Below are positions 45,029 through 49,157 of a DNA stretch of 64,000 nucleotides, piece by piece. Origin of the DNA: Octopus vulgaris (lineage: Eukaryota); NCBI GenBank assembly GCA_951406725.2, contig OX597835.1, positions 36,332,001 through 36,396,000 of the forward strand, in the 5' to 3' direction. The notes under the pieces are model-generated. The model did not search any database. It was not told where the DNA came from and was given only the letters and a program-made list of their open reading frames with translations. A program made the translations under genes and the position numbers. Every line of letters begins with the position of its first letter. Position 1 is the first letter of the stretch.

Positions 45029-46826
45029 ATGCGTATACACATATGTTTGTATATATCTATATGCTTGTATGTATGTATAAACATATTTACGTTTCGCTTT
45101 ATTACTAATGTGCTTTCACTATTTTATAACGCGTGTAAATATATATGTATACATACACATACATGCACATACACACACACACACACACACGCAAACACAC
45201 AAATACACTCATACATATATACATACATAAGTGTTTGTATTAGCACGTGTTGGCTGTATGGTGATATATATACGAAAGATTTCGCATATATACACACATA
45301 CACACACACACACACACATATATATATATATATATATATATATATATATATATATATATATATATATATATACACATGATTTACATATATGTGTTTTTGC
45401 AAGTAATATTATTAAATCGAAAACACATTATTTTAATAACAATGAGGAACCATAAAAATATTTTTTTTAATTAAATACGCTTTGTCTTCAGCAAGAAATC
45501 AAACGAAACACAAAAGAAACGGAACGCTATCAGTCGAAAATGATCAAAGAATTTGCTTCTATGGTTTCTAGCATGTCTGGAAGATATGTTAGCAATGATA
45601 TCAACTTATATTCCAATATATGAAGGATTTGGTCCCATTTCGATAACGTTAATCTATTTATTATAAACATGATAATATAGTCGAAGGAATATAATTGCCA
45701 TTTTGTTGGTTTGTGATTCGTTATTTTTCCTTTTTTTTTCTTTGGAGAAGGAGTGGTTTTTTTGCGGAAGGCTTGTTGGGGGCGGGGTGGGAGATTACCA
45801 TTTATTTTTGCAATATGTGCAAATAGAAATGCTTCTATGTCAGTCTAATCTAGAATGTTTCATAATAGGAATCTGATTCTAGGGAAATATTAGCGCTACA
45901 ATACCGAAGTTTTCATGTGAAGAAGGAGAGAAAGAATCTGAGAATTCTATCGAGTAAAGATTTCTTTAGTAAATTATATTTAATAAAAGTCGTATCTATC
46001 GCGTATAGCAAACTATCTATCTACCTAACCTTATATATATATTTTATATATATATATATATATATATATATATATATATATATATATATATATATATATA
46101 TATATATATATATATCTTATCGCGTGTTTGTGCCTTTGTATATATTTATATAGTCATACGCAGATACACACAGATATATGTATGTATGTATATATGTGGT
46201 TACCGGTTTAGCCAACCGAAGATCCGACCATGCAACAAGTTGTACGATACTCCATTTTTCCAATATCTCAAAGCTACCTCACACACACACACACACACCA
46301 CACTCTCTCTCATACACACATACGCACACACACACACATACATACATACACACTCATATAATATATACTTTATTATTAAACCTGGAATCCATTCTTGATC
46401 ACAACTACTCGACGAACAGTTTTTGTGATAGTTTTGTGATGTTTTTGTATAATAAAGCATATTACTCTGCTTCCGGTATTTATGTACTTACTCGGATACA
46501 TAGGTATATGTAATATATATGTATATGTATATATATATATATATGTATATATATATATGTATATATATATATATATATATATATATATATATATATATAT
46601 ATATATATATATATATATATATATAAAATTATTACATTATATAAAAGGGCTTAGTAAAATAAATTACTTTGCCGCATACTGAACTCATTAGAAATAGCAG
46701 CTAAAAAACTTTTATAAAGCTATTTCTAATACTTAAAGAAAATCTCTCTCATATATAGTGTTTGCTTAATTCAACTCACAAAAGTTTGGGGGTAAGGACA
46801 TTAAAAAATCAAATGCTAAGGTTATT

Positions 46827-46878
46827 CGAGAACGTACGTTTCAAGATTAGTCAAAACAACATTTCTATCTTCAGCTCA
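46827..46878 (-). ncRNA. Type I HHR, array copy 1
   Basis: TGAG-CTGAAGA-T-AGA(..)TCT-T-GAAA-CGTACG-TT-CTC(G). Confidence 0.75.
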
Positions 46879-47371
46879 GAAACTCCTTGGTTTGGATTTG
46901 GAAACACTGAAAGTAAGAACATACCCTTTCGAAGATCCGCTCGTAACTAACAGTGCCAACAAACCCAAATAAGCAAGTGAAGAATTTCTGTTCTCCCCTT
47001 TCCACCAGCGTGGGTTAAAATCATCAAACGCTATGCTTATTTCGGTAAAATCCGAAGCATTAATTAGAGGGAGATTAATTATAATTTCAACAATTGAGGG
47101 TAAAATTAATTAATTATTAATCAATTTCACCAAGTGTTCAGTGTGCAAAGGGACCATTTAAGGCGAATTCAAATTATTACATTATATAAAAGGGCTTAGT
47201 AAAATAAATTACTTTGCCGCATACTGAACTCATTAGAAATAGCAGCTAAAAAACTTTTTTAAAGCTATTTCTAATACTTAAAGAAAATCTCTCTCATATA
47301 TAGTGTTTGCTTAATTCAACTCACAAAAGTTTGGGGGTAAGGACATTAAAAAATCAAATGCTAAGGTTATT

Positions 47372-47423
47372 TGAGAACGTACGTTTCAAGATTAGTCAAA
47401 ACAACATTTCTATCTTCAGCTCA
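47372..47423 (-). ncRNA. Type I HHR, array copy 2
   Basis: Same motif, +545 bp. Confidence 0.75.
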
Positions 47424-47916
47424 GAAACTCCTTGGTTTGGATTTGGAAACACTGAAAGTAAGAACATACCCTTTCGAAGATCCGCTCGTAACTAACAGTG
47501 CCAACAAACCCAAATAAGCAAGTGAAGAATTTCTGTTCTCCCCTTTCCACCAGCGTGGGTTAAAATCATCAAACGCTATGCTTATTTCGGTAAAATCCGA
47601 AGCATTAATTAGAGGGAGATTAATTATAATTTCAACAATTGAGGGTAAAATTAATTAATTATTAATCAATTTCACCAAGTGTTCAGTATGCAAAGGGACC
47701 ATTTAAGGCGAATTCAAATTATTACATTATATAAAAGGGCTTAGTAAAATAAATTACTTTGCCGCATACTGAACTCATTAGAAATAGCAGCTAAAAAACT
47801 TTTTTAAAGCTATTTCTAATACTTAAAGAAAATCTCTCTCATATATAGTGTTTGCTTAATTCAACTCACAAAAGTTTGGGGGTAAGGACATTAAAAAATC
47901 AAATGCTAAGGTTATT

Positions 47917-47968
47917 TGAGAACGTACGTTTCAAGATTAGTCAAAACAACATTTCTATCTTCAGCTCA
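47917..47968 (-). ncRNA. Type I HHR, array copy 3
   Basis: Same motif, +1090 bp. Confidence 0.75.
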
Positions 47969-48734
47969 GAAACTCCTTGGTTTGGATTTGGAAACACTGA
48001 AAGTAAGAACATACCCTTTCGAAGATCCGCTCGTAACTAACAGTGCCAACAAACCCAAATAAGCAAGTGAAGAATTTCTGTTCTCCCCTTTCCACCAGCG
48101 TGGGTTAAAATCATCAAACGCTATGCTTATTTCGGTAAAATCCGAAGCATTAATTAGAGGGAGATTAATTATAATTTCAACAATTGAGGGTAAAATTAAT
48201 TAATTATTAATCAATTTCACCAAGTGTTCAGTATGCAAAGGGACCATTTAAGGCGAATTCAAATTATTACATTATATAAAAGGGCTTAGTAAAATAAATT
48301 AAGCAAACACTATATATGAGAGAGATTTTCTTTAAGTATTAGAAATAGCTTTAAAAAAGTTTTTTAGCTGCTATTTCTAATGAGTTCAGTATGCGGCAAA
48401 GTAATTTATTTTACTAAGCCCTTTTATATAATGTAATAATTTGAATTCGCCTTAAATGGTCCCTTTGCATACTGAACACTTGGTGAAATTGATTAATAAT
48501 TAATTAATTTTACCCTCAATTGTTGAAATTATAATTAATCTCCCTCTAATTAATGCTTCGGATTTTACCGAAATAAGCATAGCGTTTGATGATTTTAACC
48601 CACGCTGGTGGAAAGGGGAGAACAGAAATTCTTCACTTGCTTATTTGGGTTTGTTGGCACTGTTAGTTACGAGCGGATCTTCGAAAGGGTATGTTCTTAC
48701 TTTCAGTGTTTCCAAATCCAAACCAAGGAGTTTC

Positions 48735-48786
48735 TGAGCTGAAGATAGAAATGTTGTTTTGACTAATCTTGAAACGTACGTTCTCA
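48735..48786 (+). ncRNA. Type I HHR, inverted array copy
   Basis: TGAGCTGAAGATAGAAATGTTGTTTTGACTAATCTTGAAACGTACGTTCTCA read directly on the + strand. Confidence 0.78.
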
Positions 48787-49157
48787 AATAACCTTAGCAT
48801 TTGATTTTTTAATGTCCTTACCCCCAAACTTTTGTGAGTTGAATTAAGCAAACACTATATATGAGAGAGATTTTCTTTAAGTATTAGAAATAGCTTTAAA
48901 AAAGTTTTTTAGCTGCTATTTCTAATGAGTTCAGTATGCGACAAAGTAATTTATTTTACTAAGCCCTTTTATATAATGTAATAATTTGAATTCGCCTTAA
49001 ATGGTCCCTTTGCATACTGAACACTTGGTGAAATTGATTAATAATTAATTAATTTTACCCTCAATTGTTGAAATAATATATATATATATATATATATATA
49101 TATATATATATATATATATACATATATATATACATATATATATATACATATATATTA

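Follow-up and report, generated by a model that had tools for sequence, protein, structure and literature searches.

How does a non-coding tandem repeat come to lie in a simple (TA)n tract as two arms of opposite orientation? The question is raised by an array of 545-bp units in the genome of Octopus vulgaris, within a window of 64,000 nt (GenBank assembly GCA_951406725.2, contig OX597835.1, positions 36,332,001 to 36,396,000 of the forward strand), to which coordinates refer unless a locus is named. What lies here is a single insertion of a 545-bp tandem element that codes for no protein, is dispersed through the genome and carries a conserved hammerhead motif. Judged by its sequence, it is almost certainly an element of the retrozyme type, and likely a retrozyme that depends on Penelope-like elements (PLEs). 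A single circular RNA likely served as the template for both arms, each of which would have been primed at one end of the cut (TA)n.

The array and its family

Three forward units begin at 46626 (unit position 1), 47171 and 47716 and are followed by a 41-bp remainder (48261-48301), while the inverted part (48297-49074) comprises 146 + 545 + about 87-91 bp, or 1.43 units. The sequence AATTA at 48297-48301 is common to both parts, and (TA)n lies on both sides of the array. This is the layout of the preliminary description, made from the letters of the window alone, with its three units, AATTA switch, roughly 1.4 inverted units and (TA)n setting, except that the remainder measures 41 rather than 40 bp. 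That the copies differ by only a few bases is likewise borne out by the counts: units 2 and 3 are identical, unit 1 shows three differences and the inverted unit one (0-3 per unit). The unit has a GC content of 32.5%, within the range below 45% used for retrozymes. As had been stated, it contains no credible open reading frame (ORF); the longest stop-to-stop frame spans 77 aa, and an ORF for reverse transcriptase (RT) and GIY-YIG is absent. Since the hammerhead is located on the minus strand of the forward units, we take the minus strand there as the RNA and the plus strand as the cDNA.

The unit is not confined to this locus. It belongs to a dispersed, young, non-coding tandem family that occurs as monomers and multimers, with at least 205 unit matches in the genome (40 of 1,150 candidates scored). 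A 26-mer specific to the 545 subfamily matched 258 exact-pattern units (control 0), and the first 100 of these fell into 37 places, from which roughly 95 loci are estimated. A motif common to three related families, here called the superfamily, gave 12,846 genome matches (control 0). For the analysis, 67 loci were fetched, 40 from the unit search, which is biased toward near-identical full units, and 27 from the 26-mer search on contigs C1-C5 only; 65 were kept. L032 and L037, whose flanks are the same as those of L033, and second, diverged insertions in L031 and L052 were left out before counting. Contigs of four presumed-RNA runs from four studies cover all 29 bins of the unit and the head-to-tail joint; the joint is also found in DNA, and such contigs cannot distinguish a circle from a tandem.

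Two start sites, one of each per insertion

The preliminary description had presented the inversion as a switch of strand at one array. Inverted arrays are, however, present in 44 of the 65 loci and follow a strict rule. Their outer ends cluster at two sites that lie about 100 nt from each other, site A (unit positions ~455-468) and site B (~8-15, or ~1-14 by alignment, with TATA at 13-18). Forty of the 44 have one A and one B end arranged ends-out, three have A together with an irregular end, and one has A and B ends-in. Pairs of A with A or of B with B do not occur (0/44), whereas independent choice would give about half like pairs. Given this frequency and the one-A-one-B rule, the inversion is most readily understood as two cDNAs that were primed separately and then joined, rather than as a strand switch.

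On the cDNA-sense strand, A and B are both 5' ends. A (TA)n run adjoins 101 of the 105 ends of these two kinds (B 46/49, A 55/56). The 21 loci of single orientation start at A (12), B (8) or elsewhere (1). Both start sites are TATA micro-matches, and a third TATA (unit 127-132) is never used as a start. The domain holding them is conserved over 12 sequences of several subfamilies, with double changes in 5 of 27 pairs, and inverted loci of the sister families likewise show one short and one long end. The inner arm ends are scattered over the whole unit; 21 of 40 junctions overlap by 1-18 nt, and arm ends at the predicted hammerhead cut site are not enriched (4/80 vs 2.9 expected).

The insertions display the PLE signature of partial tandems with a truncated copy in inverted orientation, a one-sided tail and a microsatellite target. 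Their tail of about 100 nt (unit 455 to 8-15) is outside the PLE tail length of 30-40 bp. From architecture and target we infer mobilisation by a PLE.

Two loci are described separately. In the sole ends-in locus (L271:1753-3391), each arm ends at unit position 74, and the two start sites are separated by host DNA. A tiny insertion of the 545 family, situated in (TA)n behind the end of a Neptune-type PLE (L358:2717-2853), has an A arm that halts at site B, as if running into a second primer.

Haplotypes of the two arms

With 121 of the 545 unit positions masked (homopolymers, TA junctions), a comparison of the two arms at 20 polymorphic sites showed no difference in 25 of 29 informative loci, with 5 mismatches in all among 524 comparisons. 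Arms from different loci mismatch at 30%, and 37 haplotypes were distinguished among 56 loci. A total of 126 variants were fixed in both arms, 13 private to one locus. No variant was present in two or more passes of one arm yet absent from the other, so that no trace of post-insertion expansion at the DNA level is seen. The predicted cut site is free of indels over 199 passes. This pattern suggests frequent monomer bottlenecks followed by clean multi-turn copying, which a covalent circle fits best. The A+B pairing would likewise be explained, as each site is present once in a monomer. The iterative reverse transcription of a 545-nt RNA that had been proposed from the window survives in this part, as the uniformity within loci favours repeated copying of one monomer, but not in the strand switch.

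A conserved hammerhead motif

The hammerhead is found where the preliminary description had placed it. In the inverted unit it consists of CTGAAGA (48739-48745), GAAA (48771-48774) and GTT (48780-48782), with stem III ACGTACGT at 48774-48781 and stem I TGAG/CTCA. A motif scan recovered it in 4/4 full units of the window and in 2 of 1,000 shuffles of the unit. Across the superfamily, it is present in 31 of 35 distinct complete units (545-644 bp), 113-133 nt upstream of the shared superfamily motif, compared with 0/35 on the opposite strand and 0/1,750 shuffles. Nine of 13 stem pairs change on both sides among 13 aligned representatives, including C3-G8 to U3-A8 in one family. The covariation score was reached by 0 of 500 shuffles, which is not a probability because the rows are related, and slid controls drop to 24-38% pairing. 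At the level of the 65 loci, core variation is confined to N7 (27 loci) and H17 (11 loci), the two free positions of a hammerhead, and to position 10.1, where U.U changes to G.U.

The hammerhead identity is well supported by these comparative data despite the absent Rfam match, and we consider it probable, with good confidence, that the motif is catalytically active. Several points weigh against this. The Rfam search by which the preliminary description proposed to confirm the motif was negative, as the curated covariance models gave no hammerhead match at the gathering score and E<=10. Stem II opens with a U.U mismatch, and the catalytic fold is predicted at +0.2 compared with -7.8 kcal/mol for an alternative fold (8 kcal/mol less stable). 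Elsewhere, only one of nine predicted Xenopus retrozymes cleaved in vitro (bioRxiv 10.64898/2026.07.22.740005), and the hammerhead of an Anolis PLE is dispensable for insertion in vitro (PMC11167929). When folded in isolation, our core is predicted to be caught in a lengthened stem II; two copies could pair with each other through a 10-nt palindrome around stem III (predicted -13.0 kcal/mol). A 2-bp stem III and a U.U at the base of stem II are also found in the axolotl HHR_Amex2, which cleaves poorly alone and well as a dimer (PMC7229834).

Rfam matches to CRISPR-DR50 were rejected as chance matches to an AT hairpin. Other, unrelated hammerhead-like motifs were seen in L035, L050, L063, L066, L082 and L119, one of them within a 525-bp tandem.

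Neptune-type elements as candidate partners

The genome contains young PLE families with open frames of 784/785, 781 and twice 775 aa (775a, 775b), which are assigned to the Neptune clade by their motifs. One Neptune-type family gave Pfam matches to RT and, weakly, to GIY-YIG. Members of the 784/785 family lie in (TA)n as 4.4-kb tandems and ends-out inversions. A long end is paired with a short one in 7/7 of its resolved inverted loci and in 4/4 of those of a 775-aa family (counted without the single-end loci L103/104, L106, L114, L116 and L362/363). In the 784/785 family, 71 variants occur in all passes of both arms vs 23 in one pass. Neptune tails in this genome measure 32-38 nt. Neptunes with intact ORFs are located in L101-L120, L288-L293 and L321-L380; two families have an upstream ORF, and the 784 and 781 families carry U3-A8 hammerhead cores.

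The partner search employed blastn of one to three units and a start-domain model (R1), the latter run on 79 and 60 sources, a subset of the fetched loci. It found neither an attached unit nor a start-domain match in the sampled loci of Neptune 784/785, 781, 775a, 775b and an old Poseidon-like family, a point against the reading as a PLE-dependent retrozyme. Of what the preliminary description expected from a genome-wide search, the dispersed multimers were thus found, but the parent PLE was not, in five PLE family groups. Retrozyme matches in L208, L227, L293, L295, L349 and L358 proved to be separate nested insertions, not parts of PLEs; weak matches were also obtained in L104, L108 and L213.

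A broken Neptune RT adjoins the array (49170-49860, minus strand; RT 49454-49860), sharing a (TA)n tract with its A end and showing 76% aa identity to the 784-aa family. It has its own, different hammerhead and was treated as a neighbour, not as the parent; a motif similar to that hammerhead occurs in one more copy in the window. In the 784-aa Neptune as in the retrozymes, the long end is preceded by a T-rich CACCCT/TACCCT motif (L114:7390-7420; window 49050-49060), a weak lead to the partner.

Features of the array and other repeats in the window

Table 1. Coordinates of the array, its flanks and its predicted functional parts
Feature	Window position	Strand	Basis
Left (TA)n tract, insertion target; no target-site duplication resolvable within it	46520..46625		
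Arm from site B, 3 units + 41 bp; + strand taken as cDNA sense	46626..48301	+	
AATTA overlap between the arms, unit positions 41 and 146	48297..48301		
Arm from site A, 1.43 units; - strand taken as cDNA sense	48297..49074	-	
Type I hammerhead motif, unit 1	46827..46878	-	
Type I hammerhead motif, unit 2	47372..47423	-	
Type I hammerhead motif, unit 3	47917..47968	-	
Type I hammerhead motif, inverted unit; palindromic stem III; predicted cut after 48782	48735..48786	+	
Predicted 545-nt monomer RNA, cut site to cut site; -146.4 kcal/mol, z -6.6	47376..47920	-	folding prediction
Conserved structured domain holding start sites B and A, internal copy	48347..48529	+	
Further internal copies of the start-site domain	47084-47266 and 47629-47811	-	
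Terminal copy of the start-site domain, end = site A	48892..49074	+	
Right (TA)n tract, insertion target	49075..49157		

Elsewhere in the window, a short B-to-A foldback insertion of a sister 563-bp hammerhead family lies in (TA)n at 14607-14946. Tandem repeats of 184-185 bp at 10404-11121, 23501-23873 and 32937-33308 belong to a common dispersed element.

Proposed mechanism and alternatives

We posit that a minus-strand read-through RNA would be cut by its hammerheads, probably with the help of a dimer or a protein, and be ligated into a 545-nt circle. A Neptune-type RT/GIY-YIG protein would bind the conserved domain in trans, and both strands of the (TA)n would be cut. One 3'-OH would prime at site A and the other at site B, each via a TATA micro-match, and each RT would circle the RNA for up to several turns. 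Joining of the two cDNAs at short microhomologies would then yield the ends-out inversion. With a single A and a single B per monomer, the A+B pairing would be automatic. We regard this whole mechanism, from hammerhead cutting to cDNA joining, as on balance probable.

Some observations at single loci speak against a circular monomer as the general template. L034, L261 and L042 carry periodic unit-specific variants, so that some templates were multimeric or blocks were duplicated later, and L061 looks like a duplicated block. Moreover, two RNAs from one uniform source locus would also match the arms at any single locus, and assembly polishing could exaggerate the uniformity of tandem units. The array in L042 (2726-7234) comprises eight units with period-4 variants and a G8-to-A core change in 4/8 units, a pattern that a tetramer template or block duplication would give.

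The alternative that survives best, though in our estimation unlikely, is two-site Penelope-type priming on an uncut, linear, multimeric read-through transcript, in which no circle would be required and the hammerhead is a passenger or serves another step. Such a scenario has been proposed for the Anolis PLE, hammerhead mutants of which still insert in vitro (PMC11167929). It would suit the predicted instability of the catalytic fold, the periodic variants of L261 and L042, and L034, where a variant lies in the second pass of both arms. However, a linear template can only shorten arrays, yet the haplotypes are evenly spread over multi-unit arrays, and arm-restricted expansion is not seen. A multimer would also offer several A and B sites, yet like pairs are absent, and the hammerhead is conserved with covariation across subfamilies.

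PLE inversions have also been read as self-priming (PMC3846280). Here, a single priming event would be followed by foldback of the cDNA, which would copy itself until a stop at the other site. This would account for the shared haplotypes. Under foldback, the arm copied from the other must fit inside that other arm, a criterion applied to 37 of the 40 A+B loci, one clean arm each. Arm lengths are compatible with it in 28 of the 37, including the window locus (foldback from B), and five junctions are near-palindromic, with inner ends within 5 nt (0.75 expected, P about 0.0009); these points favour foldback. Two RTs colliding on one circle would, however, also yield coinciding ends. Nine of the 37 loci fit neither direction, compared with 8.9 expected for independent arms, and foldback would need a start at A and a stop at B in 18 loci and the reverse in 10. 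Judging from these arm lengths, foldback cannot be the general rule, but it may be a minority route; as the explanation of the inverted arrays it is improbable.

A tandem formed at the DNA level, either through expansion of a satellite by unequal exchange or as a rolling-circle element of the Helitron kind, is very improbable and largely refuted. Helitron-like rolling-circle elements have both termini fixed, whereas the inner arm ends of our insertions occur throughout the unit. It has been proposed that satellites can grow locally from the terminal repeat of a PLE (bioRxiv 10.64898/2026.07.22.740005), and the apparent block duplication in L061 and a 13-unit array between gaps (L047) would agree with it. 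Against it stand the fixed outer and variable inner ends, the (TA)n flanks, the A+B rule, the lack of arm-restricted variants, the RT-encoding Neptunes with the same architecture and a ribozyme conserved on one strand only. Tandem and inverted repeats are hard to assemble, but an assembly artefact at the window locus is scarcely credible, given the same rule in forty loci on many contigs with different junctions and flanks and its repetition in sister families.

Comparison with known systems

In L1 twin priming, cDNA is primed from both ends of the target, which leads to ends-out inversions joined at microhomologies; the second site is variable there, and different parts of one linear RNA are represented in the two arms. 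The octopus insertions, by contrast, have a fixed second site, and the same sequence is copied again in both arms, often over more than one turn.

Metazoan non-LTR (long terminal repeat) retrozymes are likewise dispersed, non-coding tandem units with one type I hammerhead each and low GC content. The preliminary description called the unit long for an animal retrozyme. It does exceed the 170-400 nt of invertebrate retrozyme circles (Cervera & de la Pena 2020, PMC7229834), but falls inside the published range of 51-972 bp (Li, Clavereau & Pollet 2026, bioRxiv 10.64898/2026.07.22.740005). In the latter study, 24 of 57 Xenopus retrozyme families matched a known transposable element. For the octopus unit, no pLTR parent came to light in the five PLE family groups searched. 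Animal retrozymes form RNA circles, and their use as template is put forward as a hypothesis (PMC7229834). A fixed pair of start sites, inverted arms and (TA)n targeting are not described for retrozymes in the accessible portions of these articles, and the word "inverted" occurs 0 times in the main text of PMC7229834.

A close architecture is that of endonuclease-positive (EN+) PLEs of the Neptune clade, which share the partial tandems, inverted truncated copy, one-end tail, microsatellite targets and a hammerhead upstream of the ends (Craig et al. 2021, PMC8557442; Arkhipova et al. 2013, PMC3846280). Unlike Neptunes, the retrozyme has no ORF, and its tail of ~100 nt, vs 30-40, lies in a structured domain absent from the autonomous families examined. 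How PLEs make tandem, inverted and tailed insertions has been described as undefined (PMC8557442). The Anolis Poseidon PAc protein cuts and extends both strands in vitro and starts at two adjacent RNA sites (Frangieh et al. 2024, PMC11167929). It thus resembles our system in its two adjacent internal RT starts, an AT-rich target and a hammerhead needing help. For PAc, non-homologous priming and an uncut multimeric template were proposed (PMC11167929), whereas our data show TATA micro-matches and favour a monomer.

Significance

The element class itself is already known, and the pattern of tandem, inversion and one-sided tail is a known PLE signature (PMC8557442). Neither a cephalopod retrozyme nor the priming of both ends on a circle came up in our searches of the open literature, although subscription papers, Repbase and supplements may hold them. 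As far as the literature was searched, a retrozyme superfamily with the PLE signature and a ~100-nt tail in a structured domain is new, as are the counts pointing to both ends being primed on one monomer.

The role of PLE hammerheads is unclear, and this family provides countable genomic support together with a small substrate for an in vitro test. The family is young, has units of 545 nt, many haplotypes and a fixed pair of start sites, and shares its genome with several candidate RTs. More tentatively, and with the doubts outweighing the case, we raise the possibility that the integration of PLEs in general proceeds on one RNA circle, made by the ribozyme and primed for both ends, with a protein dimer cutting both target strands and starting one cDNA at each of two sites. 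If true, this single step would account for pseudo-LTR, tandems, inverted copy and one-sided tail alike, and the present retrozyme superfamily would be its cleanest genomic record.

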